This document shows, one piece after another, positions 1 through 12,054 of a stretch of DNA of 12,054 bases. How positions within the stretch are numbered: position 1 is the stretch's first letter; each line of letters opens with the position of its first letter. The position numbers were made by a program, and so were the translations under genes. The notes beneath the pieces are model-generated. The model did not search any database. It was not told the origin of the DNA and worked only from the letters and a program-made list of their open reading frames with translations. Origin of the DNA: Candidatus Heimdallarchaeota archaeon (lineage in GTDB: Archaea; Asgardarchaeota; Heimdallarchaeia; Heimdallarchaeales; Kariarchaeaceae); assembly GCA_015523565.1 (NCBI GenBank), contig WAKA01000018.1, positions 1-12,054 of the forward strand, written 5' to 3'.

Positions 1-396
1 TTATATTATTTGGCAGATAGTTACAGAAATACCAAAAAAATAGTTTTTTATCTTAATTACATTTTGTATTTCTTCCAGAATATCTTTTTGAAAAAAGAAA
101 TTGATTTCAATTTTAACACAAAAGCTTGTTGAAATTACAATGAATTAAGACAAAAAGGATTATTGAAAATTAAACCTTTTTTTGCGTTATGATTGTTAAT
201 TGCAATTTCAATTCATTGGAAAAACACTGTTATTTTGTTTTAGTCAAAGTAAATCAAGCTTTTAGAAAACCAGAAATATAAAATTTAGAGCGTCCGATGA
301 AAGAAAAAGATCGATTTTTGATTTGAAAGGCTTTGAAAAAGCATAAGCTAATTCAAAAATATCGCAATAAATAAATTTACATCAATTAGAAACTAT

Positions 397-1215
397 TCAA
401 CCAATTTGTCTCAGACGTTTCTTTTTGTACCAGATAATGGCAAAGAAAGGAATCAAAATGTCAATTGCCAAGGGACTTTCGTCAACACTTGCAGTTGATG
501 TGGGACTGCTTGTTGAGATGTTCTGTGATGTTTCTACCTGTGAAGACGCAAGAATGCCACCCGATACATGAAAAATATCCAATTTCAGAGTTACAGGAGG
601 GGTTTTCATATAATACAGAACCACCTTGAATGCATAGGGATTGTCCTTCTCGAAGTTAAAATAGTCATCTGGTAATGAATTTGGTACATTCATGCATTGT
701 GGATATGTTTTGTACCAAATTTTATTTTCAAGTACATATTCGTATTGTTCCTTCCAAAGTTGATAATATGGGATTGTCCCATTGGTCATGACCGAATAGG
801 GGAACGGAATGTCTTGATATAATGAACTACCCATGAAGAAAGTCTCAGATTCATTCATGTCACCATAGGTCCAATTTATTCTATCCAAATGCCTGAACAC
901 CAACGCGTCCTGACGGTCTGCATAATCATAAATACTGTTCGCAGGCTCTACTGTTTCATTATAGAGGACAACCAGAGCGAAATCATCCCAAGTGACACCC
1001 GACGGCAAAGTCGTGGTGTTTAGAACATTTATTGCAATGCTATCACAAAAAGGCGGTGAATATACGACACTTGTTTGGTAAACCAACTGTTGATAGCCCT
1101 GATTTTTCAGAGGGACATCATATGACCTGAAAATTTCATCATCCGATTTGGCAGATGCAGATATTAGAAGTATAGATATTATTATCAATGACAGGAGATA
1201 ATGCTTTTTGTTCAT
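397..1215 (-). CDS. Secreted/cell-surface protein of unknown function with Ser/Thr linker and C-terminal membrane anchor (CTERM-like)
   Basis: The ORF track starts at TTG 1233, but a GAGGTGA RBS (1221-1227, minus strand) precedes ATG 1215. That start gives a signal peptide MNKKHYLLSLIIISILLISASA. The C-terminus has an S/T-rich linker (SSQVETSQNISTSSPTSTAS), then SPLAIDILIPFFAIIWY and KKKR. Several NxS/T sequons. No recognisable catalytic motif. Confidence 0.8.
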   Translation of the reverse strand: MNKKHYLLSLIIISILLISASAKSDDEIFRSYDVPLKNQGYQQLVYQTSVVYSPPFCDSIAINVLNTTTLPSGVTWDDFALVVLYNETVEPANSIYDYADRQDALVFRHLDRINWTYGDMNESETFFMGSSLYQDIPFPYSVMTNGTIPYYQLWKEQYEYVLENKIWYKTYPQCMNVPNSLPDDYFNFEKDNPYAFKVVLYYMKTPPVTLKLDIFHVSGGILASSQVETSQNISTSSPTSTASVDESPLAIDILIPFFAIIWYKKKRLRQIG

Positions 1216-1340
1216 GTTTTTCACCTCAAACAATAGTTGGGAGTGACGTGATATCCAAAAATTCCATATTTTTGTCTGTTACAACATGAATTTAGTGCCA
1301 TTATTTTAGTCAACTCTTTTGTGTACTTCCTGAAAGTGTG

Positions 1341-1357
1341 CAAAAACCCTTATTAAA
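1341..1357 (+). promoter_or_regulatory. Candidate archaeal BRE/TATA promoter element (CAAAAACCCTTATTAA) in the divergent intergenic region
   Basis: A purine-rich BRE-like run followed by TTATTAA, between divergent genes. The AT-rich background makes chance matches plausible. Confidence 0.35.
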
Positions 1358-1546
1358 TTTTTTATGAACAAAAAAATTTCAAATAGAGTGTAGAGTAGTC
1401 ATATTATCATATCTAAAATAAAACAATGTTGAAGAATCAAGGGTCATCATAAGAAATGAAATGTGTAGAAAAACTATAAAAAACACCAAAGGATAATAAA
1501 ATTTTAAAGCATCCATGGGGAATGACATATAGTGAATCCAAAACAT

Positions 1547-1855
1547 ATGAATAACGAAATGGGCAAAATGGAAAAGCAAGAAAGAATTAACAGGATCGTT
1601 CAAGAAGAGATGTCAAAACTCCACAAAAGGAAAAAACTGGACAAATTTTGGGTAAATCTAACACTTGGATTTTCAATCTTGGTAATTTTGATTTATTCAG
1701 CTATCCTTCTTGGAGGTCACGCAGATGGTTATTTCGCTAGAAAATCCTTATTTATGATTATCATGTTTTTAATTATTATCTATTTTGTAGTTCATTCACC
1801 TTATTTACGCTCGTGGATTGTCGGAGTTGATGACAGGGGCAGAAAAGAATATTAA
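1547..1855 (+). CDS. Small hypothetical membrane protein (charged N-terminal helix plus two TM helices)
   Basis: ORF 1532..1855. The start is uncertain (GTG 1532, ATG 1547 or later ATGs). Two hydrophobic segments, FWVNLTLGFSILVILIYSAILLGG and SLFMIIMFLIIIYFVVH, follow a basic stretch (KLHKRKKLDK). Confidence 0.7.
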   Translation: MNNEMGKMEKQERINRIVQEEMSKLHKRKKLDKFWVNLTLGFSILVILIYSAILLGGHADGYFARKSLFMIIMFLIIIYFVVHSPYLRSWIVGVDDRGRKEY

Positions 1856-1987
1856 GGGGTTATCTGTGCAGTGGTTAAAAATGCAAGTTATGAAAACAAC
1901 ATGTTTCGAAATATCTACAAATGCTTTTTTGGGTTTATGTATTCCTTTCAATTTCATTTTAGTTTCAAAAATCAAGTCACACACTCC

Positions 1988-2011
1988 AAAGCTTCTTAAA
2001 AAAATCAGAAA
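1988..2011 (+). promoter_or_regulatory. Putative promoter for a leaderless transcript (AAAGCTTCTTAAA...TCAGAAA)
   Basis: AAAGCTT begins 34 nt upstream of ATG 2022, followed by an AT-rich TATA-like stretch. There is no SD sequence. The same motif and spacing occur upstream of ATG 4227. Confidence 0.5.
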
Positions 2012-2021
2012 AATTTAGCGC

Positions 2022-4178
2022 ATGAAGCGCATGGGTTTCATTTTGTTGGGAATTATGCTTTTATTCGCAGGCATGGCAAAAGCCAATCCAGCAATTACAA
2101 TGAAAAATGACATTACAAGTAAGTCATATGAACAGCCAAAAGGTGTAGTCTTAATTGATGACATTCACAGTAACGATTATGCAGACGGTAATTTGGATTT
2201 GGTTTATGATGATCTGGAAAACATGGGTTATGTCCCGATGTATGCCTCAAATTTTTCCACATTTGAGGAAGGGCTTTCACATGCACACTATCTTGTCATG
2301 ACAGCCCCATACATGAATATTTCAGATACGGATATTCAAGCGATTTCATCATGGATGGGGAATGGCAGTAAAAATTTACTGATTGCATCCCGTGGTGACT
2401 TCAGTAGTATTTCCCGTTCTTCAATCAATGAGATTCTTTCTAGTGTGGGAGTCGAGATGAGGACCAATGATGACAATGTATACACAACGGATTCGAGTGC
2501 AAGAAAACCATGGTACATCGAGACAAATAATTTCAATACAGATTATGCAAACTTGTTCACAGGGGTTGATACAATAAATTTCTTCAGTCCCTCATCTGTT
2601 GTTACGGGAAGCAATACTATAGTATTGGTCAATGCAGAGGCACCAGCCTATCAATCCGATGAAAATCCACCAGAACCAAGTGTGATTTATGACAACACCC
2701 AAGATGGGGAGGGAGGTGAAAGGATACCGCTTGCAGGAATGGAATTTGTGAATGATGACAGAGTGGTTCTTGTAGGCACAACATTGTGGAGTGATTTTGA
2801 TTATGGGGATTCATCAGCAGAGGATACGGTCTTTTTTGGAAATTTGATGGAATATTTCACTGAACAGACAAGACAGCATGAGGAAATTGTCATTGACCTT
2901 CCCGATCCGAATCCACCTGTCATTAAAGTGGACAATCCCAGAAATGGAGGCACAGTTAAAGGGACGGTTCCTATAAGGTTTGACATCAAAGAGCCATTTG
3001 GCTTGAAATCAGTTGAGGTATGGATAGATGACAACTTTATGGGCAATGCTTCAGAATTCGATTGGGATACAACCACATATTCTGATGGAGGACATACCAT
3101 TAACATTACGGCAGTTGACAATTCAGGCAATGTTGCCACAAAACTAGTCAATGTCATTGTTGACCAAAATTTGGTTCCAAAAACTCGCAACCCTGTCAAA
3201 ATAATGACTTACAATATCAAGGAATCAGGAATTTTCCCCCAATGGTTAGATGTAGTTAAAGAAGAGAATCCAGACATTTTGGTGCTTGTTGAAACAGGTG
3301 ACTTTGACAATAACAACAATGAATTGATGAACAAATATTTGGATGAATTGAATGTTTACTTCATGGATTTTGCAAAATACGAGGGATATACCCAGCAGAA
3401 TATACAGGCACCATATAGTGGCATTACCATTTTCTCTAGATTTGGTATTTTGGATGCAGAGACAATTAGCTCTGTGACATTGGATTCAGGGGCAAGAAAA
3501 ACAGTTGCACTGCCGTTCCTTCATGCACAAGTGAATGTGTTTGAACAGACAGTGCATATCATTGGCGGTCACTTGACCTGTTGTCCAGGGGAGGACAATG
3601 AGAAATCAAGAGAGGAAGAGCAGGAAGGAATCATGAATTTCATGGATGGATTGGGCAATGTTCCAATAATATATTTGGGAGACATGAACAGTAATTCACC
3701 AATGGATCCAGGAACGCATGACCTTGGAACAAAGCCCATAGAAATAGTTGTTGATCCCAGTAATCCCCAAACTGCAATCAGGCACGAATTCAAGGATGTA
3801 TATCTTGAAACAAATCCAGACAAGATAGAACCGACCTACATTGCATCAGGTCTTGAGTCAAGAATTGATTTCATTTTTGTCAATCAATGGTTCTTTAATA
3901 GAATTATTAATTCAACAATTGGAGACACGCCCAGTGCAAGGGAAGGAAGCGATCATGTCCCAGTGGATGTATTTTTGGATATGAAGAATTTGACAAAGCC
4001 TGCAGAGATTTCACATACGTTTTCGACACAAACACCAGAACCATCCAGCAGTGAATTTATTGAAAGCTCCGCAGTAACCCCGTCTCCAATTGAGTTGACA
4101 TTCATGTTTACCGCAATTGCAATTAATTTAATAATTAATGGAAGAAAGAAGAAATACCTTGCAAAAACTGAAAAATAG
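2022..4178 (+). CDS. Cell-surface endonuclease/exonuclease/phosphatase (EEP) family protein: signal peptide, GIFT/DUF4350-like domain, Ig-like (Big) domain, EEP domain, CTERM-like anchor
   Basis: Signal peptide MKRMGFILLGIMLLFAGMAKA. VVLIDDIHSNDY...RVVLVG..LWSD resembles the GldG/IFT52 (GIFT) fold. PPVIKVDNP...WDTTTYSDGGHTINITAVDNSGN is a typical Big/Ig repeat (about 2901-3168). EEP motifs in order: IMTYNI, DILVLVE, GHL, LGDMN, RIDFIF, GSDHVPV. Ends with an S/T/P linker, TPSPIELTFMFTAIAINLII and RKKK. Confidence 0.9.
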   Translation: MKRMGFILLGIMLLFAGMAKANPAITMKNDITSKSYEQPKGVVLIDDIHSNDYADGNLDLVYDDLENMGYVPMYASNFSTFEEGLSHAHYLVMTAPYMNISDTDIQAISSWMGNGSKNLLIASRGDFSSISRSSINEILSSVGVEMRTNDDNVYTTDSSARKPWYIETNNFNTDYANLFTGVDTINFFSPSSVVTGSNTIVLVNAEAPAYQSDENPPEPSVIYDNTQDGEGGERIPLAGMEFVNDDRVVLVGTTLWSDFDYGDSSAEDTVFFGNLMEYFTEQTRQHEEIVIDLPDPNPPVIKVDNPRNGGTVKGTVPIRFDIKEPFGLKSVEVWIDDNFMGNASEFDWDTTTYSDGGHTINITAVDNSGNVATKLVNVIVDQNLVPKTRNPVKIMTYNIKESGIFPQWLDVVKEENPDILVLVETGDFDNNNNELMNKYLDELNVYFMDFAKYEGYTQQNIQAPYSGITIFSRFGILDAETISSVTLDSGARKTVALPFLHAQVNVFEQTVHIIGGHLTCCPGEDNEKSREEEQEGIMNFMDGLGNVPIIYLGDMNSNSPMDPGTHDLGTKPIEIVVDPSNPQTAIRHEFKDVYLETNPDKIEPTYIASGLESRIDFIFVNQWFFNRIINSTIGDTPSAREGSDHVPVDVFLDMKNLTKPAEISHTFSTQTPEPSSSEFIESSAVTPSPIELTFMFTAIAINLIINGRKKKYLAKTEK

Positions 4179-4190
4179 TTTATTTTTTGT
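4179..4190 (+). terminator. Putative archaeal oligo-T terminator
   Basis: TTTATTTTTTGT immediately follows the TAG stop at 4176-4178. Confidence 0.4.
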
Positions 4191-4218
4191 CGAAAGCTTG
4201 ATTAACAATTTTCAGAAA
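4191..4218 (+). promoter_or_regulatory. Putative promoter of the three-gene operon (CGAAAGCTTGATTAA...TCAGAAA)
   Basis: BRE-like CGAAAG plus TATA-like TTGATTAA at about -29 to -22 from ATG 4227. No SD, consistent with a leaderless mRNA. Confidence 0.5.
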
Positions 4219-4226
4219 TATAACCT

Positions 4227-6347
4227 ATGACCAATGAACTAGAAGATTTAGATGCAAGATTCAAGCAAATTGCAACTGTTGTCATGGCAGCGGTTTATGC
4301 TACAATCAAGGATCTTGCACCAGATTCCATCACAATATTGCCAAATGTTGTAATCAATAGCGAAAGTTTTGGCTTGTTGATGTTGGGAACTGGCGCTTTA
4401 ATTTTCGGAAAAGGCATAGGTGCAACCTCAGCAGGTTTGGGGGTAATTTTTGATGAGTTTAAAGTAGTATTGGATGGGCAACCCTTGCCAGCGATTAATA
4501 TAGGATTGATCTTTTCAACAGTTGCACTATCCGTAAGCACTTGGTTGACTGGATTTTTGGAGAACGCAAGAATTGGAGATTATATCCCAGAAAACTTCCA
4601 AGAAATATTTTCTGGAAGGGAACTTGTCAAAGTCTCAAGGAAAACTGTAGTTTCAGTGGTCGGATTGTCATTGGCGAACAACTTCTTTTATGCATTTGGT
4701 GGTCAATTGATGGAAGGGGCACCAATAGGAAATGCGACAATGTTGTTTTTGACAGCTTTCTTGAGAGACGCCATTTTGCTGGTTGTTGGCATGCCTATTC
4801 TTTTGATAAGCTATGAATTCATTGAAGTTTACAATCAAAAGAAAGAAAGAATAATAGAAGAGCTGAATAAGGATATCCTATACAAAATAGAGGTCATGAA
4901 ATCGGCAGAGATAATCAATGTAGAACTTCCAGAAAATGCATTGAAAGAAGGTGTTTGGACACCCATTTCGGTAGAACTTATGAATCCCTCTAAAAAGAAA
5001 ACAGCCTACAACATTGAAGCTGTTTTCACGGCCAATTTTTATCCAGAACTGGATGCAACACCTGTATTGGATCCTGGAATGGGATGGAGACAGAATTTTT
5101 ACGTACTTCCACGAAAACAGGAAAAAATAACGGGGAGAATAAGAATCACACCGAAAAAGCCAAAGAAATTCAAATTTTCAGAACCAGAGGAAACCATTGT
5201 AGAAATTGAAGCGAATTCAAGAAAAAAAGGGGGACCCTTGGTAGCTCTTTTGGGACTTTCTGGATTGAACTTTGGTGCTTTGGGACTTTCTCTTGTATGG
5301 GAGCAAATTCAGGAGTATGTCAAAAATCCAAATCTTCTGCAAAAACAAGTTTTAGAATCATTGCAAGTTATCTCAAATGTCCTTATTGCGGAAATATTGT
5401 TGTTCATTGGTGCAATATCTACCCAATACTTTATGGCCAAAAGAAAATCAAAAGTATATTCCTCGAAAATTAGTTTTGCCTCAGACATTGATGATCAAAA
5501 AATAGAAGCAGTTAAGGAAAAGGCATTAAAACTGTTCATGAAAAAATATGGAAAACCATTAGCAATCATGTTTAGATCTCTGATAGGAATTGGTACAATC
5601 ATAACTTTTGCATATTTTGGTTATAACGCATTCATGATATCTGTAAATCCAGATTCCAGATTATCAAGCAACAATGATTTTGCCATCATTTCAGCCATTG
5701 GTTTGGGATTATGGGTATTTGGGTTTAGAGGCATGCAGATCCTTAATGAAATCACCACGGGTAAATCGACAAGAAATGCCAATAATTTCATTAGAGAATT
5801 CATACCTCTTGGAAATATTGAAGCTAACATTCCAACAGAAGTGATTCTAAGAATAGTGAATATTTCGGAATACCCTGGAATGAGGGTGTTGTTAAAATCA
5901 GATTCAGCCATTTCGCCACCAATGATTGAGTTGCATACTGAACCTGGAGAACTTGCACAGGTGAAAATTGTATTGACTGCGGATATGGGAGACTCACAAA
6001 ACATTCTTGCACTGGCATATCCATTTTTTGATAAAAACAAAAAGCTAATTCCATTTGAAGAGGCTGAACCATTGGCAAAGCAGGAGATTGACTTTAAGAT
6101 TACCCCGCCTGGCACAATGGGGATGTCCAAAGAACAAGAAAAGAAAGTCAAGACAGTGGGGGCCATGGTGACAGGATTTGCAGGAATTTTGACTGTATTG
6201 GGCCAAGTACTCCAAATCGGAAACACATTCGATTTTATCATAAATAACGCACCTACCATTTTAGCCTTGCAGGTTCCACTTATGGCAGGTTATTTCCGCG
6301 TTTCTTCACTTCTGAAACGTTCAAAAGCAGGAGGTATTGATTTATGA
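4227..6347 (+). CDS. Polytopic membrane protein: ECF transporter S-component-like N-terminal domain, two Ig-like beta-sandwich domains and about six further TM helices
   Basis: The first ~200 aa (KQIATVVMAAVYA...GALIFGKGIGATSAGLGVIFDEF...STWLTGFL...) follow the S-component helix pattern. Two beta-rich soluble segments (GVWTPISVELMNPS...LDPGMGWRQNFYVLP; ANIPTEVILRIVNIS...TEPGELAQVKIVLTA) are each followed by TM hairpins. The stop overlaps the next start (ATGA). Confidence 0.75.
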   Translation: MTNELEDLDARFKQIATVVMAAVYATIKDLAPDSITILPNVVINSESFGLLMLGTGALIFGKGIGATSAGLGVIFDEFKVVLDGQPLPAINIGLIFSTVALSVSTWLTGFLENARIGDYIPENFQEIFSGRELVKVSRKTVVSVVGLSLANNFFYAFGGQLMEGAPIGNATMLFLTAFLRDAILLVVGMPILLISYEFIEVYNQKKERIIEELNKDILYKIEVMKSAEIINVELPENALKEGVWTPISVELMNPSKKKTAYNIEAVFTANFYPELDATPVLDPGMGWRQNFYVLPRKQEKITGRIRITPKKPKKFKFSEPEETIVEIEANSRKKGGPLVALLGLSGLNFGALGLSLVWEQIQEYVKNPNLLQKQVLESLQVISNVLIAEILLFIGAISTQYFMAKRKSKVYSSKISFASDIDDQKIEAVKEKALKLFMKKYGKPLAIMFRSLIGIGTIITFAYFGYNAFMISVNPDSRLSSNNDFAIISAIGLGLWVFGFRGMQILNEITTGKSTRNANNFIREFIPLGNIEANIPTEVILRIVNISEYPGMRVLLKSDSAISPPMIELHTEPGELAQVKIVLTADMGDSQNILALAYPFFDKNKKLIPFEEAEPLAKQEIDFKITPPGTMGMSKEQEKKVKTVGAMVTGFAGILTVLGQVLQIGNTFDFIINNAPTILALQVPLMAGYFRVSSLLKRSKAGGIDL
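6329..6335 (+). promoter_or_regulatory. Shine-Dalgarno site for the 6344 gene
   Basis: AGGAGGT ends 8 nt before ATG 6344, inside the upstream CDS. Confidence 0.7.
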
Positions 6348-8137
6348 AAATTTATGTAATTGCAATATTTCTGATCATTTCAATTGGAGCAGGGGGGACA
6401 TTCACATATCTCGCATATTCACAGCCAAAGATCAAATTAAATCCAACAATAGAGACAGAGGCATTCGAATCTGTGGAAAACTTGAGCATTATTGTCCAAG
6501 ACAAATTAAACACAAAAATAAAAGAATATGAGGAATTAGGAACCCTGCTTAAAAATTACTTGAAAAGCTCGTTGCTTTTCAAGATAAGACCAGAAAATAA
6601 GGAAGCTTATTACCATAACAAGGCATTTGAAGATTCAATTCCAGGACTCGGATATGATGAGATCTACAATAATACAATCTCAAAAGATGTGGCCGCGATA
6701 ACATTTTCCCCAAGTGTTTTCGATGAAAGTTATCAAAAATCCTATCTTTCAAATTCAACAGAACCAGAGAGCCCATACAAACATGTTCCAACAAATTTGT
6801 TGGATGAGATCAATAAAACATCAAGCCTGGTTGATTTGTGGAAGTCAATAGACAGAAGTGACATTAGTTACATGCAGTTCGGGTCTTCTGATGGATTTTT
6901 ATTGACATATCCATATACAAAACTTTCAAAATCGTATGACTTCAAGACAGATCCATGGTATGAAAGTGGACTTACAGGGTCAAAAGACATTGTAATTGCA
7001 ATAGATGTTTCAGGGTCGCTTAATCAGACCCAATTTGAAAGCATCAAAAATTCCACTTCCAAAATTGTTGATTCATTTTCCACATCTGACAGGTTTACGA
7101 TCATTGCATTTTCTGACAAAATCAATTACTTTTCCCAAAACTTGGTTGTTGCCACAGATGAAATTAAATTAGACGCGATTAATTTTATAAAACGATTGGA
7201 ACTTGGGGGATTATCCGATATTTCAGAAGGAATTGTTTCTGGACTTAAGATTCTTGGCAATGATGGATATGAAAGAAACCAAAAAATCATGATTGGCATT
7301 ACAGACGGTTTTCCCAATACAGGAATATTGGATAACATAACCTTGGCAAAAACCATCTCAAAGGAAAATGGGCTTGCCAAATCCACAGTGCTACTTTACG
7401 GTGTTAATGACAAAACCAACGATGATTTACTTGGCTTAATTGCGAATCAGACAAATGGATACTATGTAAATGCAAATACATCAAGGAAAATCATTGAAGA
7501 AATACCAAACTACAATAAGTTTTTTGAAAATAGTACGAATGAATTCATTTCATGGAGCCTTCCTTTTGTCAACAAGAGAATGAACAGAATAGAGGTAAAC
7601 CTTTCACTTTCTGTTTCCTTGGAAAACAAGGCATTGGGTGTTTTCAATTTAGAAATAGACATTCGACCAATTGTAGACATACTCATTGAAAGCAGAAAAT
7701 ATAAAGATCAAGAGATTTTCATTTCAAATGTAGGAAAGGGGATATTTGCCCATCCTGTCTTCAATGAGTTTTTCATCAATACAAAAACAAATGAAGATAT
7801 CCAAAAATCGTTTTTAGAGTTTACAAATGACGCTCCAGAACTTGAAAATAATTTCAACACATTCTTACGTACAAAACAACAAAAACTGTCATTTGAGGAT
7901 ATCAATGGAAGAAAATACTTCAATACATTCAGGTATCTTGAACAGACAGGACTTATTCTCGGGATCATTGTACCTTACGACAGTATCATACCGCAATCAA
8001 TAACGAATAAACTCAAAGGGTTGGATTTGAATTTTCAAACATTCCAAAACTTATTGCCAACCTATGCATTTGCAATTTTTGTGTCGCTGGTTATTATTGC
8101 ATTAAGAAAAAGAATATTTGAGGAGGCAGAGCAATGA
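6344..8137 (+). CDS. alpha2delta (CACNA2D)/CACHD1-like protein: VWA_N/dCache_1 domain with inserted MIDAS-type VWA domain and N- and C-terminal membrane segments
   Basis: Ordered motifs YYHNK, ISKDVAAI, LLDEINKTSSLVDLWK, YMQFGSSDGFLLTYP, YDFKTDPWY, SKDIVIAIDVSGS (DxSxS at 7004-7018), DRFTIIAFSD, ITDG (7298-7309), WSLPF, LGVFNLEID and IFAHP parallel the alpha2delta-1 motifs as I recall them. Hydrophobic N-terminus; C-terminal TM YAFAIFVSLVIIAL followed by RKR. Confidence 0.88.
   Translation: MKIYVIAIFLIISIGAGGTFTYLAYSQPKIKLNPTIETEAFESVENLSIIVQDKLNTKIKEYEELGTLLKNYLKSSLLFKIRPENKEAYYHNKAFEDSIPGLGYDEIYNNTISKDVAAITFSPSVFDESYQKSYLSNSTEPESPYKHVPTNLLDEINKTSSLVDLWKSIDRSDISYMQFGSSDGFLLTYPYTKLSKSYDFKTDPWYESGLTGSKDIVIAIDVSGSLNQTQFESIKNSTSKIVDSFSTSDRFTIIAFSDKINYFSQNLVVATDEIKLDAINFIKRLELGGLSDISEGIVSGLKILGNDGYERNQKIMIGITDGFPNTGILDNITLAKTISKENGLAKSTVLLYGVNDKTNDDLLGLIANQTNGYYVNANTSRKIIEEIPNYNKFFENSTNEFISWSLPFVNKRMNRIEVNLSLSVSLENKALGVFNLEIDIRPIVDILIESRKYKDQEIFISNVGKGIFAHPVFNEFFINTKTNEDIQKSFLEFTNDAPELENNFNTFLRTKQQKLSFEDINGRKYFNTFRYLEQTGLILGIIVPYDSIIPQSITNKLKGLDLNFQTFQNLLPTYAFAIFVSLVIIALRKRIFEEAEQ
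8120..8126 (+). promoter_or_regulatory. Shine-Dalgarno site for the 8134 gene
   Basis: GAGGAGG ends 7 nt before ATG 8134; ATGA start/stop overlap at 8134-8137. Confidence 0.7.
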
Positions 8138-10635
8138 GCGAAAATAATGATAAACCAGATAATATTGTCAAAAATACAGTTGAGGAAAACCAACAGCAAG
8201 TCGAGGAACCCCAACAAGTGGAAGAGCAACAGCAAGTCGAGGAACCCCAACAAGTGGAAGAGCAACAGCAAGTCGAGGAACCCCAACAAGAGGAAGAGCA
8301 ACAGCAAGAGGAAGAACCCCAACAAGAGGAAGAGCAACAGCAAGAGGAAGAACCCCAACAAGAGGAAGAACCTCAACAAGAGGAAATGAAAGACAAAGAA
8401 ACAGATCAAAAGCAAGAAAGCGAAATGGTGAACATTGATGAGTTAATAGAAAAGAGTATAGAAGAAACAAAGACAAGCATTCCCAAATTCTACCATTTAG
8501 GAGAATTGAAAATACAAAGTAAATTTCAAAAAAGACTAAGGAATTTCAATAAGCTTATTGCATATGCCTTAATTCCATTGCTCATTATTGTCTTTGGAAC
8601 TATTTTCAATTTATATGGCATTAGTCAATACGTTCAGGTCAACAATACAAATGATGCACATCAAATCATGATCAATGGAACACAATCAGTTATTCTTCCT
8701 GTTGCCAAAAACATTGATTCAAAATTTTCATCAATTCTTGATTCTATTCAAGACTTTCAAGCTAAACTTAATTCAAATTGGACTTTTCCTGTTATCAAAA
8801 GTTTCCCTGCCAATGATACAGGATTAACACCTGGTTCGTATTTTTCAGAGAAGCATAATGGGACAATCGATTTGCTTGTTTCCTCATATTTCCTTTGGAT
8901 GAATTCAACAACGGGGAACCAGACAATAGCAGAGACATCTGCATTGACAGGTTTTTTCCAGTCATTGTATTTTGCAAATCCAAATATTCTCTATCTTCGT
9001 ACAATCTTTGATGATGGAGTTGTAAGAACATTTCCACATTTGGAAGAAAACACAAGCAACTTCAAACCATTAACCTACAAATGGTATAATGAAACCAAAC
9101 AGTTGAATTCAACAAATACAATTTTAAAAACGGTGTGGGTGGATCCCGTCACCAATAAGCATAGCATAGTCCTGTCTAAAAAATTTGAAATGAAAGGAAA
9201 AGAAAGAGGAATAATTGAATTGGTTGTTGACTTGTCATTTATTGACTCCTTGTTACGTAAATATTCTTCCAAAAATGAAGTGCCAATTGTCCTTAATCGA
9301 GACCATAAAGTTGTGTTTCATCCATCCTTAAAATTAGGAGCTTTTGATTGGAATGAAACATACATAAACCAGACATTGACATCATTGGAAAACACAACGG
9401 AATCAAAGATGTTGGAAAGTTTAGCCAGCCAACCATTTAATTCCTCTTCTTATACAGAAATGAAGACCAATGACACGACATCTCTTGTATGGAGATTGAA
9501 AATTAATTCAACAGATTTCATTTTCCTCTTCCAACTGAAGTTATCGAATAATAAGGTGATCTCCACATTTGATTCTACAGAGTTATTTGGGATACCTGGA
9601 ATAGTGGCATTTATGCTTTCTCTTGTTGCTCTGTTACTCCATGTCAATTATGGAATTATGGAGAATGTCGATTTTGAAAAAATGATTGATAAAATCAACA
9701 AGAAAATAAAAAGCAATAAGTTAATTGACAGCTTCAAAGGCTCAATAGACTCGTTGACGTCTGGAGTATTGCTTCAAGAAGTGACAGAGAAAGTATCTGA
9801 AGAAATTGAGAGCAAAGGAGAGGAATTACGCGAAAGCATTGAAGAAAAAATAGATGAGAAAGTCAAGAGTGTGCAGAGTGCAATTGACGAGAAACTTGCA
9901 CTTCTTGAAGAGGAAGAGGATGAAGATTCCCATCAAATTGTCAATGAAGTCTTTGACAAACCTAAAATCATTTCCAGAGTTCTTGATGGATTTGCCAAAA
10001 ATCCTGTACTTTACCTGAAAAATAAGATAGAAACCAAAGGCATTGACTTAAATGCAATCAAGAACGGAGATTTCTCATCTCTTCAAAATCTTGCAACCGA
10101 GCCAGAAAAACTGATTACAGTCTTAATTTCTGGAGGTCCAATTCCCTTGTCTGAACTGGCAAAAATCAGCAAGGTAAGCAAAGCGAAAATGGAACATTTC
10201 TTAGGGAGCTTGCCTGCTGAATCAGGTGTCTATCTCGACGAGAAAAATGATCAAGTGGAGGTGGACAAGGATCGGTTTGTCACTAACTTAAAAGACATAG
10301 GACCTCGTTTCAAATTGTTTTTCAAGGATCCCGATAAATACCTGCAAATGGTTCCAGGCAACAACTTTGAAAAGATTGAGAACTACAGAAGCAATATCAA
10401 GCAAGTTATCAAACCATTGATTGCAGGAGATGAAATGCCCTTGGAAGATGTTGCCAAATTATTGGGATTAAAACAGCAAGATGCCAAAGACCTTTTACTT
10501 TATAGCCAGAAAAAGGCAGACGTCGGATTGAAAATAAAGCGAAAGAAAGTTAGGGCGAATCCTGATAAGTTGAAAGAAAACCTGCAACCTTTTGTTGGCT
10601 CAATGCTAAAAGAACTTGTCACAAAATACGTTTAA
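8134..10635 (+). CDS. Two-TM dCache_1 sensor protein with acidic Glu/Gln repeat N-tail, cytoplasmic acidic coiled coil and duplicated winged-helix-like C-terminal domain
   Basis: TM1 at about 8554-8622, TM2 at about 9583-9657. Between them lie the Cache motifs NPNILYL..FDDGVVRTFP, FKPLTYKWY, VWVDPVT, GIIELVVDL and LNRDHKVVFHP. The C-terminus has two repeats (LISGGPIPLSELAKISKVSKAKMEHFL; LIAGDEMPLEDVAKLLGLKQQDAKDLL) with an HTH pattern. Confidence 0.82.
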   Translation: MSENNDKPDNIVKNTVEENQQQVEEPQQVEEQQQVEEPQQVEEQQQVEEPQQEEEQQQEEEPQQEEEQQQEEEPQQEEEPQQEEMKDKETDQKQESEMVNIDELIEKSIEETKTSIPKFYHLGELKIQSKFQKRLRNFNKLIAYALIPLLIIVFGTIFNLYGISQYVQVNNTNDAHQIMINGTQSVILPVAKNIDSKFSSILDSIQDFQAKLNSNWTFPVIKSFPANDTGLTPGSYFSEKHNGTIDLLVSSYFLWMNSTTGNQTIAETSALTGFFQSLYFANPNILYLRTIFDDGVVRTFPHLEENTSNFKPLTYKWYNETKQLNSTNTILKTVWVDPVTNKHSIVLSKKFEMKGKERGIIELVVDLSFIDSLLRKYSSKNEVPIVLNRDHKVVFHPSLKLGAFDWNETYINQTLTSLENTTESKMLESLASQPFNSSSYTEMKTNDTTSLVWRLKINSTDFIFLFQLKLSNNKVISTFDSTELFGIPGIVAFMLSLVALLLHVNYGIMENVDFEKMIDKINKKIKSNKLIDSFKGSIDSLTSGVLLQEVTEKVSEEIESKGEELRESIEEKIDEKVKSVQSAIDEKLALLEEEEDEDSHQIVNEVFDKPKIISRVLDGFAKNPVLYLKNKIETKGIDLNAIKNGDFSSLQNLATEPEKLITVLISGGPIPLSELAKISKVSKAKMEHFLGSLPAESGVYLDEKNDQVEVDKDRFVTNLKDIGPRFKLFFKDPDKYLQMVPGNNFEKIENYRSNIKQVIKPLIAGDEMPLEDVAKLLGLKQQDAKDLLLYSQKKADVGLKIKRKKVRANPDKLKENLQPFVGSMLKELVTKYV
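8191..8385 (+). repeat. Coding tandem repeat: five 36-bp units (each two 18-bp subunits) plus a partial unit, encoding QQQ(V/E)EEPQQ(V/E)EE
   Basis: CAACAGCAAGTCGAGGAACCCCAACAAGTGGAAGAG occurs identically at 8191 and 8227, with variants at 8263, 8299 and 8335. Units are contiguous, have no spacers and are in frame. Confidence 0.95.
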
Positions 10636-10651
10636 TCCATTTCATGCCAAA

Positions 10652-11914
10652 TCAAAATTCATTCTTTTTTTTTCTATAAATGACCATAATCCAAACACCA
10701 ACCAACAGGTACTCCAAATAAGTTTTCTGTGATGTCGTTTCAGAGACAGTTTCCTGTTTCTCTTTTGTTGTTTCATAATGGATGCCATCAACCAAAATTT
10801 TGTCAGGACTTTCAAAAACAATTGTTCTGAAACCATTTAATGGATCATATTTTCCTGGTTCAAATGAATTGTACATCTCAACCCATAAGGAATTACCGAC
10901 ATATTCCACTTTTGACACATGGTCATGTCCATAAAGGAATAAAGAAATGTTCAGTGACACGACATTGTTCCGAATTTTTTGATCATAGTCGTAATGTGCA
11001 AACAATATTTTCCGCTTGCCATGCCCATTTTGAAGCCGTTCACTTATTTGGTTCAAATAGCCATAATCAATCCCTGTAATATTGGAATTATAGCCGACAA
11101 AATAGAATTCATTCCATTCAAAATCAATTATGTTTTCAGGATACATGTATTGCTTCCAAATGTTTGAGGAGTGTTTCCTTGTCGGATAAAGATTCATCCA
11201 ATCATGATTGCCAGAAACCAAAAAGATCGGGAAGTTCCACATATCAAGGAAATCCAGACCTATATTGATAACCTGTTCGAACGTATATTTCGGTGGCTTG
11301 CCAGTTGTCTCATTGGTAAAATATGTCACACCCCCTTCAAGAAAATCACCAGTGATGATAACAAAATCAACCCCAGTACTTTCTATTTTTTGAAATACTT
11401 TTGTCACATTTTCCAGTGTAGACTTCCCTTCAATAAACATCGGTAAGTGAGTGTCTGAAACATGGGCAATTGTCAATGGCAAATCCTTTGCTTCTACAAT
11501 GTGAACAGAATGTGCCTGTGCATCAACGATTTGGGTGTTACCTGTCAAGAGAACAAGATCATAAGTTCCAATGGGCAATCCAAGGGGAAGAGACAGCTCG
11601 AAGTCCACCCCTTCTCCAGAAAGGTCTTCAGCAACAACGGTCAATGTTTTCTCTCCTTTCTTGCCTATTGCAACCGTAAACAGTTCACCTACAGGCTTTA
11701 ACAATTGAAGATGAATTATTCCATCTTGCAGAAGAATTGCAGGAAATGTTGCATGAGGGGATTTAATGTAATTATTTTTGTGATTGACAAAGTCAAAGGA
11801 CGTTGTTTCACGATAAGGTTTGTCAAAAGAAATTTTTGAAGGAGACGAAATGACAATCTGCGGAGAAATATATCCAATTAAAAGTAGAACGATTATGAAA
11901 AATTGCTTAAGCAT
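10652..11914 (-). CDS. Secreted, membrane-anchored calcineurin-like metallophosphoesterase
   Basis: All five metallophosphoesterase motifs are present: HVSDTH, ITGDF, SGNHD, FAH, GHDH. N-terminal signal (MLKQFFIIVLLLIGY) and a beta-rich N-domain. Thr/Glu linker, then YLEYLLVGVWIMVIY and RKKK. GAGGT (11924-11928, minus strand) favours ATG 11914 over TTG 11920. Convergent with the operon across a 16-bp gap. Confidence 0.9.
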   Translation of the reverse strand: MLKQFFIIVLLLIGYISPQIVISSPSKISFDKPYRETTSFDFVNHKNNYIKSPHATFPAILLQDGIIHLQLLKPVGELFTVAIGKKGEKTLTVVAEDLSGEGVDFELSLPLGLPIGTYDLVLLTGNTQIVDAQAHSVHIVEAKDLPLTIAHVSDTHLPMFIEGKSTLENVTKVFQKIESTGVDFVIITGDFLEGGVTYFTNETTGKPPKYTFEQVINIGLDFLDMWNFPIFLVSGNHDWMNLYPTRKHSSNIWKQYMYPENIIDFEWNEFYFVGYNSNITGIDYGYLNQISERLQNGHGKRKILFAHYDYDQKIRNNVVSLNISLFLYGHDHVSKVEYVGNSLWVEMYNSFEPGKYDPLNGFRTIVFESPDKILVDGIHYETTKEKQETVSETTSQKTYLEYLLVGVWIMVIYRKKKNEF

Positions 11915-12054
11915 ATCCAAACTACCTCTTATTTAGGATATACATAACATTAAAAACCATTAAGATAAAAAAATCATCATTCAATGATTAAAATGCGGTT
12001 ATTTAGGCTTATCATCCATAACAACATAAAACAGGTATTGCAAAATTTAAATAA

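Follow-up and report, generated by a model that had tools for sequence, protein, structure and literature searches.

The subject of this analysis is a stretch of 12,054 nucleotides from Candidatus Heimdallarchaeota archaeon (GTDB Heimdallarchaeales; Kariarchaeaceae), namely positions 1-12,054 of the forward strand of contig WAKA01000018.1 in assembly GCA_015523565.1. This stretch, referred to below as the window, comprises the entire 12,054-bp contig and contains three overlapping genes whose products may together form a membrane receptor. The genome is 3.57 Mb in size with a completeness of 90%, and it also encodes an ESCRT-II protein (expectation value (E) 7.8e-21; 14 control genomes gave no match) as well as a true actin (E 1e-136). 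Both proteins mark the organism as an Asgard archaeon.

The three open reading frames (ORFs) lie on the forward strand at 4227-6347 (gene 1), 6344-8137 (gene 2) and 8134-10635 (gene 3), and all are open and complete. A first-pass annotation of the locus had described them as a translationally coupled unit with strong internal Shine-Dalgarno sites, and this description is borne out. More specifically, the two junctions are ATGA overlaps (6344-6347 and 8134-8137), each preceded by a ribosome-binding site on the forward strand within the end of the upstream gene: GGAGG at 6330-6334, 9 nt before the gene-2 ATG, and GAGGAGG at 8120-8126, 7 nt before the gene-3 start. The conserved C-terminal Gly-Gly of gene 1 is encoded by the GGAGG of gene 2.

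The promoter-like element annotated before gene 1 corresponds to the TATA-box-like octamer TTGATTAA at 4198-4205 (forward strand), about 25 nt ahead of the gene-1 ATG. An identical copy stands at equal spacing in two relatives from the same genus (loci L003 and L027). Judged from sequence alone, the octamer and its spacing are compatible with an archaeal TATA box and a leaderless first cistron. A scan for bacterial sigma-70 promoters, using a model that is not applicable to an archaeon, stayed at chance level (25 found versus 23.2 expected). The unit is closed, as had been annotated, by a convergent gene at 10652-11920 on the reverse strand (P0005), which encodes a membrane-anchored metallophosphoesterase, lies 16 nt beyond the gene-3 stop and falls outside the conserved trio described below. 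The annotation had also remarked on the lack of a histidine kinase, chemoreceptor, cyclase, ABC ATPase or channel; indeed, neither the three proteins nor the remaining ORFs scanned in the window showed a kinase, methyl-accepting chemotaxis protein (MCP) signalling domain, cyclase, ABC ATPase or channel domain.

The three genes form a unit conserved across related loci

We surveyed 400 Asgard genomes and compared, by coordinates, the matches that cover the full length of each of the three genes. A related-locus search of genome contigs with gene 2 had returned no confirmed relative, and genome searches took its place. All three genes were found at neighbouring coordinates of shared contigs in genera g1, g4 and g6 of family f1 and in genus g13 of family f4, and in genus g2 a contig starts with gene 2 and gene 3. 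The trio is present at every related locus with enough DNA, covering at least five genera, two families and one Asgard class.

Genes 1, 2 and 3 are collinear in L003, L027, L028, L029, L030, L032 and L042. Gene order and 4-nt overlaps are both preserved in L003, L027, L028, L029, L030 and L042, and in L032 gene 1 and gene 2 abut while gene 2 and gene 3 overlap. A GGAGG-type site stands 6-10 nt ahead of the gene-2 start in 8 of 9 related loci (L029 has AGGAGA) and ahead of the gene-3 start in 10 of 10. L004, L005 and L033 are interrupted by contig ends with pairs of genes retained; in L004 and L005 (34% identity) the overlap between gene 1 and gene 2 is kept before the contig ends. Because the flanking genes vary between genera, the conserved unit is the trio itself. 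The synteny check proposed in the annotation thus speaks for a coupled unit, with the trio conserved and both its overlaps and its GGAGG sites recurring across related loci.

A quickly built maximum-likelihood tree groups the operon-linked gene-1 copies in a single clade (SH-like approximate likelihood ratio test, SH-aLRT, 99), and all 10 members of known context adjoin gene 2. Scattered homologs had been named beforehand as a sign against a coupled unit. Here, operon-linked gene 1 forms one clade beside gene 2, and gene-1 relatives and some gene-2/gene-3-like pairs also occur alone. The latter are found in family f5 (L035-L038), where a gene-2-like gene is followed, with an overlap, by a short gene-3-like one, which is the order seen here. 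A family-profile search found no gene-1 relative in the four f5 genomes (completeness 74-93%), so gene 1 is not an obligatory partner of such pairs. A divergent 723-aa gene beside the f5 pair was considered as a hidden gene-1 relative and rejected; it encodes an Eco57I-type methylase and has no match to the gene-1 hidden Markov model.

Several further arrangements were observed around these relatives. The f5 pairs (L035 6042-10746 and L036 1324-6022, also L037 and L038) consist of an overlapping dCache[VWA] gene and a tail-less gene-3-like dCache gene, each pair being followed by a protein of ~490 aa with a Cys-rich, RING/zinc-ribbon-like N-terminal segment and leucine-rich repeats. In the most distant variant of the operon, a 458-aa protein is encoded directly upstream of gene 1 (L004 8453-9829 and L005 3470-4846). 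With a signal peptide, a beta-rich ectodomain, one transmembrane (TM) helix and a C-terminal MarR-type winged helix, it is a second, unrelated membrane-tethered winged-helix protein beside the operon. Furthermore, the genome of the window carries a second tandem pair of alpha2delta-type Cache membrane proteins (contig C3 1-3883, reverse strand), namely an 881-aa protein whose dCache is uninterrupted and whose VWA lies close to the C-terminus, then a partial 412-aa dCache gene. Tandem Cache pairs seem to be a recurrent Asgard theme.

Gene 2 is related to the alpha2delta/CACHD1 ectodomain

Gene 2 (P0002, 597 aa; 6344-8137, forward strand) has the architecture TM-dCache_1[VWA]-TM, with two TM helices and an ectodomain of 540 residues. 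It is almost devoid of cytoplasmic parts, which amount to a few N-terminal residues and a tail of ~10 residues past the second TM helix. The VWA domain (residues 215-385; 6986-7498, forward strand; Pfam VWA 3.6e-14) contains a metal-ion-dependent adhesion site (MIDAS), of which D221-x-S223-x-S225 and D321 are invariant and the Thr position is Ser or Thr in 11 of 11 orthologs.

The alpha2delta-like character that had been assigned to gene 2 is confirmed, both by this intact MIDAS and by sequence and family-profile matches to CACHD1 and alpha2delta-1. Compared with solved proteins as a single sequence, gene 2 matches alpha2delta-1 at E 3e-11, and the phmmer alignment (P0002 148-322 to alpha2delta-1 149-338) spans the junction of Cache and VWA. 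The gene-2 family profile matches CACHD1 at E 1.8e-39 and alpha2delta-1 at about E 1e-37, aligning gene-2 residues 153-549 with alpha2delta-1 171-600 in one stretch through Cache, VWA and Cache. Pfam dCache_1 is matched in 9 of 11 gene-2 orthologs, and the eukaryotic VWA_N in 4 of 11, ahead of the VWA. By these alignments, the VWA of gene 2 is inserted in the distal dCache_1 module as in alpha2delta/CACHD1. Gene 2 is a single dCache between two TM helices; the nested second dCache is absent, and a second dCache is encoded as the separate gene 3.

The amino-acid binding motif of dCache_1 has been defined as YxxxxRxWY ... Y[x27-34]D (PMC8915833). In the window copy of gene 2 it is degenerate, with Asp replacing Arg, Phe replacing Tyr and Glu replacing Asp. 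The f5 relatives L035 and L036, as well as their gene-3-like partners, have the complete motif. Because the window copies are without the amino-acid-binding motif, alpha-amino acids are improbable as the ligand.

Gene 3 is a paralog of gene 2 without the VWA domain

Gene 3 (P0003, 833 aa; 8134-10635, forward strand) consists of an acidic low-complexity N-terminus, a TM helix, a dCache_1 domain, a second TM helix, a coiled coil and two winged-helix-like repeats, with the TM helices near residues 137-162 and 484-506. An hhalign comparison of the gene-2 and gene-3 profiles (probability 99.6%, E 8e-25) runs from the first to the second TM helix, and gene-2 residues 211-399, which hold the VWA, are cleanly missing from gene 3. 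By this alignment, the two genes are paralogs that differ in the presence of the VWA. Its dCache ectodomain (residues 163-483; 8620-9582, forward strand) carries 16 N-glycosylation sequons. The ectodomains of genes 2 and 3 together have 27 sequons in 861 residues, and their cytoplasmic parts have 0. Of the 9 gene-3 orthologs, 4 match dCache_1 (best 2.7e-9) and 3 match VWA_N; searched against the Protein Data Bank (PDB), the gene-3 profile finds CACHD1 (2.4e-9) and a bacterial chemoreceptor dCache (1e-8).

The cytoplasmic tail ends in two mutually homologous repeats of ~85 residues (hhalign 98.5%, E 2.4e-15). The first covers residues 646-738 (10069-10347, forward strand) and the second, which has a basic wing, residues 744-833 (10363-10632, forward strand). 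A profile built from 16 such repeats gave weak PDB matches, of which ~11 of 24 are winged helix-turn-helix (wHTH) proteins; the best natural ones are the Lrp-type PH1519 (5e-3) and MarR 3nrv (6e-3), followed by ArsR, Z-alpha and PCI proteins. Within its own genome, the same profile matches the N-terminal winged helix of PheRS-alpha and a TrmB-like protein. Calling the repeats winged-helix-like is reasonable from these profile matches but not established. In the f5 gene-3-like forms the whole tail is missing. A feature search of the ESM Atlas with the tail gave scores below 0.8, and a homolog search with residues 600-833 recovered only the ortholog P0010, no other architecture with this tail being found by that route. 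A homolog search with the whole of gene 3 returned nothing that scored, probably since the acidic low-complexity N-terminus filled the candidates.

No Pfam or NCBIfam match to HAMP, MCPsignal, HisKA/HATPase, GGDEF or cyclase domains occurs in the 9 gene-3 orthologs. The earlier view of gene 3 as a Cache-wHTH transducer therefore holds in part: the dCache, the two winged-helix-like repeats and the lack of a known enzymatic output stand, and the wHTH matches themselves are weak.

As a side observation, the N-terminus, rich in Glu, Gln and Pro, is encoded by a 36-bp tandem repeat at window positions 8182-8369 (5.2 copies, 95% matches), and its length and sequence differ in every ortholog.

The gene-2 and gene-3 ectodomains are predicted to pair

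The complex of gene 2 (residues 27-566) and gene 3 (residues 163-483) was predicted with a separate alignment for each chain. The interface score (ipSAE) was 0.70 (runs 0.70, 0.71 and 0.63), compared to 0.00 for the best of three controls. Among solved complexes, 58 of 80 attain the mark used for this score, as do 2 of 110 mismatched pairs; this benchmark is only rough here since custom alignments were used. At least 89% of the contacts are common to the runs, with a partner pLDDT (model confidence) of at least 84. Contacts run along the stalk helices (gene 2 28-84, gene 3 169-197) and also link the membrane-proximal ends (gene 2 548-557 with gene 3 473-481), which would bring all four TM helices into one membrane next to each other. 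The two ectodomains are thus predicted to pair in parallel through their stalk helices, with the VWA outside the modelled interface. Independent support for the pair comes from gene 2 having no output of its own and from the recurrence of the pair in three families.

An intact, invariant MIDAS that is left free in the predicted pair would also suit an adhesin. We considered that the two chains could form an integrin-like surface adhesin rather than a signal transducer, with the MIDAS binding an acidic residue on a cell, partner organism or matrix polymer, and with the cytoplasmic tail and gene 1 anchoring the adhesin to internal structures. The wealth of sequons in the ectodomains would agree with such a role, as would the loss of the amino-acid motif from the Cache pockets of the window, the f5 pairs that are devoid of any cytoplasmic output and the long gene-1 paralogs with coiled-coil tails of ~370 aa (see below). 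However, the solved dCache_1 domains matched here are small-molecule sensors, both chains of the f5 relatives retain the amino-acid motif in full, an indication of ligand sensing, and a winged-helix-like tail suits a regulator or adaptor more than an anchor. We consider an adhesion complex unlikely.

Gene 1 resembles the S-components of ECF transporters

Gene 1 (P0001, 706 aa; 4227-6347, forward strand) encodes a membrane protein of 12 helices. A word-indexed search found 4 relatives and a profile search 60 representatives among 1.8 billion proteins. An initial AlphaFold2 (AF2) model from 5 sequences was unusable (pLDDT 42); the AF2 model described here, from 41 sequences, reaches pLDDT 70 overall and 75-87 within the first 215 residues. 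In this model, an S-component-like domain of six helices, of the type found in energy-coupling factor (ECF) transporters (residues 1-215; 4227-4871, forward strand), is joined to two immunoglobulin (Ig)-like sandwiches and three TM hairpins, one after each sandwich and one between them. The first Ig-like domain (residues 218-332; 4878-5222, forward strand) is CARDB/transglutaminase-barrel-like and compares with Ig-like domains at Z ~10. The second (residues 520-625; 5784-6101, forward strand) is the best-conserved part of the family and carries the motifs YPLFD and EAEP.

The S-component-like nature suggested for gene 1 by the first-pass annotation was upheld by structural comparison of the N-terminal domain with 48,161 chains. 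The top 12 matches are all S-components (Z 10.5-14.7, 150-176 residues covered), led by ThiT 4tkr_B (Z 14.7, root-mean-square deviation 3.7, 169 of 186 residues aligned) and EcfS 4hzu_S (Z 14.6) and including PanT, BioY, RibU, FolT and CbiM, and no other helical family appeared in 50 rows of the comparison. Furthermore, Pfam ECF-ribofla_trS (PF07155) matches 21 of 34 N-domains of the gene-1 family (best 2.7e-8) and ECF_trnsprt (PF12822) matches 13 of 34. The window's own N-domain has no Pfam S-component match up to E 1, and the family profile found no S-component among PDB sequences. Because the Pfam models match the family and not the window copy, homology is supported via the family, of which the window copy is a diverged member. 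On the model, a six-helix S-component fold of residues 1-215 is supported.

Compared with the PDB by Foldseek, the whole model gave only low TM scores of 0.1-0.3, to two-sandwich proteins such as AmoB/PmoB, transglutaminases and arrestin, which we judged to reflect a generic Ig-like likeness. A shape search of the ESM Atlas returned weak rows, except for archaeal CARDB-plus-TM proteins matching the second Ig-like module. Other forms of the family were also observed: a stand-alone paralog in this genome (L040, contig C40 384-2498), long forms of ~1,070-1,110 aa with a coiled-coil tail of ~370 aa (P0021, P0023, P0025-P0027), and, in other Asgard classes, short forms of ~260 aa (P0047 and P0055) with the layout 2TM-Ig-2TM, in which the second Ig-like domain stands alone.

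The loops of gene 1 rich in Lys and Arg all lie on the side of the S-component termini, which is the cytoplasmic one, and the opposite loops have 1-14 residues with 0-1 Lys/Arg. The first Ig-like domain has 0 sequons and K/R-rich flanks; the two Ig-like domains together (250 residues) have 1 sequon, compared with 27 for the gene-2 and gene-3 ectodomains (861 residues). Because of the positive-inside rule, the S-component topology and this near absence of sequons, both Ig-like domains are predicted to be cytoplasmic.

The invariance of two outer-loop features, E163 and N367-P368, is confined to the operon-linked clade. Position 163 lies at the outer end of helix 5; 14 of 14 operon-linked copies have Glu there, and the residue varies among the 27 others. 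Operon-linked copies also have the FGP turn of the gene-1 family changed to FGK. The annotation had proposed that the MIDAS of gene 2 docks on an acidic extracellular loop of gene 1 and is completed by an Asp or Glu there, as alpha2delta docks on Cav alpha1. By conservation, E163 is the only candidate for such a residue, and the MIDAS is intact and plays no part in the predicted gene-2/gene-3 interface. However, outer loops of 1-14 residues offer little to dock on when the large domains are predicted to be cytoplasmic, the VWA sits in the membrane-distal Cache module and would have to reach down to the membrane surface, and the f5 proteins retain the MIDAS without a gene 1. The docking proposal is consequently weakened, and we hold it to be very doubtful, although E163 stays of interest as a possible contact.

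The S-component homology raises another explanation, namely that gene 1 is a solitary uptake protein of the S-component type and that genes 2 and 3 are a separate, co-expressed receptor, for instance for the same nutrient. Solitary S-components such as BioY and BtuM are able to transport without an ECF module. No EcfT/EcfA/EcfA' module adjoins gene 1 at any locus examined; one CbiQ/EcfT-type match lies elsewhere in this genome. Solitary relatives of gene 1 in many genomes, the gene-2/gene-3 pair found without gene 1 and the divergent gene 1 of L031 would all be compatible with a transporter that happens to share an operon with its sensor. On the other side, the 4-nt overlaps and internal ribosome-binding sites linking gene 1 and gene 2 at most loci suggest a fixed stoichiometry, E163 and N367-P368 are invariant solely in the operon-linked clade, the change from FGP to FGK belongs to the same clade, and gene 2 is without its own output. 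A separate transporter and sensor is therefore quite unlikely in our estimate.

A possible heteromeric receptor

Taken together, we put the probability at about one half that the three proteins are subunits of one heteromeric membrane receptor of this Heimdall-group Asgard archaeon. Sensing would fall to the gene-2/gene-3 heterodimer as the head of the receptor, which would offer two Cache pockets and, for an acidic group of a ligand or partner, a single metal-dependent MIDAS. Because gene 2 has no tail, the signal could exit only via gene 3 or gene 1. In gene 3, it could pass from the second TM helix through the coiled coil to the two winged-helix-like domains, which may serve either as a module for docking proteins or, similar to ToxR/CadC, as a DNA-binding regulator tethered to the membrane. 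Gene 1 would be the third subunit, contacting the pair in the membrane or through its cytoplasmic Ig-like domains, and its S-component-like domain might additionally bind a small molecule in the outer leaflet, so that gene 1 would work as a co-receptor or 'transceptor'. From its coupling to the pair, its single operon clade, the clade-invariant outer-loop positions and the co-occurrence with the gene-3 tail, we infer that a shared function of gene 1 with the pair is favoured. The receptor would then have acquired its S-component-like polytopic partner in one lineage.

A number of observations weigh against this receptor. Gene 1 and the gene-2/gene-3 pair each exist alone elsewhere: the sister and other gene-1 clades stand alone, including the paralog in this genome, and the f5 genomes have the pair with no gene-1 relative found. 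In L031, gene 1 is next to gene 2 but divergently transcribed. The tail of gene 3 and gene 1 co-occur in f1 and f4 and are both missing in f5, a pattern based on only two or three lineages. The predicted pairing may stem from likeness to solved Cache dimers or to alpha2delta itself; moreover, the pairing test cannot tell a heterodimer from two homodimers, and close cousins of true partners pass it too. As for the winged-helix assignment, the best natural PDB match is only E 5e-3, and 2 of 9 orthologs lack the second repeat.

Neighbouring genes

The protein encoded directly upstream of gene 1 (window positions 2022-4178, forward strand; 718 aa) combines a signal peptide with a Big_7 Ig domain, an endonuclease/exonuclease/phosphatase (EEP) domain and a C-terminal TM anchor. 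Its gene holds the same place in L003, L027 and L028, three loci of this genus, and does not hold it in L029 or beyond the genus. A role for the flanking phosphoesterases, that is the EEP protein and the convergent metallophosphatase, was rejected on account of synteny confined to the genus. A VWA system of the Bat/MoxR type was likewise rejected, with no MoxR ATPase or DUF58 at any locus. Farther upstream, a 278-aa ORF (397-1233, reverse strand) has a weak match to an MCP-like PDC sensor domain (E 6e-4). Runs of oligo-T lie at 4179-4188, directly after the stop of the upstream gene, and at 10660-10677, just past gene 3 and inside the 3' end of the convergent gene; both are possible archaeal terminators.

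Comparison with known systems and implications

We compared the trio with the characterized systems that share its parts. In alpha2delta-1 to -4 and CACHD1 (8s7c_A, 7mix_D, 6jp8_F), as in gene 2, a VWA with an intact MIDAS is placed in the distal dCache_1 module right after the ...WY motif. Like gene 2, which is encoded beside a polytopic membrane protein, alpha2delta is an ectodomain protein without enzymatic output. Its known partner is the alpha1 subunit of voltage-gated calcium channels, and CACHD1 partners with Frizzled/LRP6. In contrast to alpha2delta/CACHD1, the archaeal system has one dCache per chain, the second dCache being encoded by a separate paralogous gene rather than nested, both chains are anchored by two TM helices, and the amino-acid motif of the window copy is degenerate. 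Furthermore, the polytopic neighbour is S-component-like rather than a voltage-gated channel; no channel-type domain was found in the window or the related loci, the wider genome not having been searched for channels.

The dCache_1 chemoreceptors and kinases (PctA/B/C 5ltx, 5lt9, 5ltv; 6iop; 6pxy) share with genes 2 and 3 the series of TM, stalk helix, distal and proximal module and TM, with significant profile matches, and the predicted parallel pairing of stalk helices resembles a dCache sensor dimer. Unlike these proteins, genes 2 and 3 have no HAMP, MCP signalling, kinase or cyclase output, and the pair consists of two different paralogs, of which one is devoid of a cytoplasmic part and the other ends in a coiled coil plus winged-helix-like repeats.

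With ECF S-components (ThiT 4tkr/3rlb, RibU 3p5n/5kbw, BioY 4dve, FolT and PanT), the model of gene 1 shares the six-helix fold, nearly the whole S-component being covered. It differs from them in the fusion of this domain to two modules, each made of an Ig-like domain, predicted to be cytoplasmic, and a TM hairpin, in having Cache receptors as genomic partners, in lacking an EcfT/EcfA module at the locus and in the divergence of the window copy beyond the reach of Pfam models.

Two further likenesses concern the way such a complex might work. Integrin alpha/beta resembles it in working, not by descent, as two anchored ectodomain chains, one of which has an inserted VWA-type domain, and the MIDAS of integrins binds an acidic ligand residue. 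In contrast to integrins, the scaffold is Cache rather than propeller/hybrid and thus unrelated, each chain has two TM helices, and no binding of cytoskeletal adaptors is known. ToxR and CadC, like gene 3, combine an extracellular sensor, a membrane anchor and a cytoplasmic winged-helix-type domain in a single chain, whereas the gene-3 repeats are C-terminal, duplicated, placed behind a long coiled coil and not assignable to a named DNA-binding family; their DNA binding is putative. We found no paper describing this three-gene operon or linking Asgard archaea with the dCache[VWA] architecture. The parts are of known kinds, and their combination and wiring are undescribed.

Gumerov et al., 2022 placed the insertion of VWA into dCache at the last eukaryotic common ancestor, with Asgard archaea unmentioned, and reported single-dCache[VWA] forms from protists and invertebrates (PMC8915833). 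The window, from the archaeal group nearest to eukaryotes, has a coupled operon that places a VWA-in-Cache module next to a paralog lacking the insertion. Conceivably, though in our view improbably, the gene-2/gene-3 pair is a two-chain archaeal counterpart, and possibly the forerunner, of the double-dCache ectodomain of alpha2delta/CACHD1, auxiliary to the polytopic gene 1. If so, the VWA-in-Cache design and the 'auxiliary subunit' mode of action would be older than eukaryotes and would not have arisen at their last common ancestor. The predicted two-chain state gives a concrete reference for testing the origin of alpha2delta/CACHD1.

The alpha2delta proteins are a major drug target, that of the gabapentinoids. 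The system described here offers a testable set of three defined proteins, a MIDAS site and a candidate contact residue, E163. By joining Cache receptors to an S-component-like protein and a winged-helix-like tail, the operon would represent an undescribed kind of receptor wiring, one that operates without kinase, chemotaxis or cyclic-nucleotide output.

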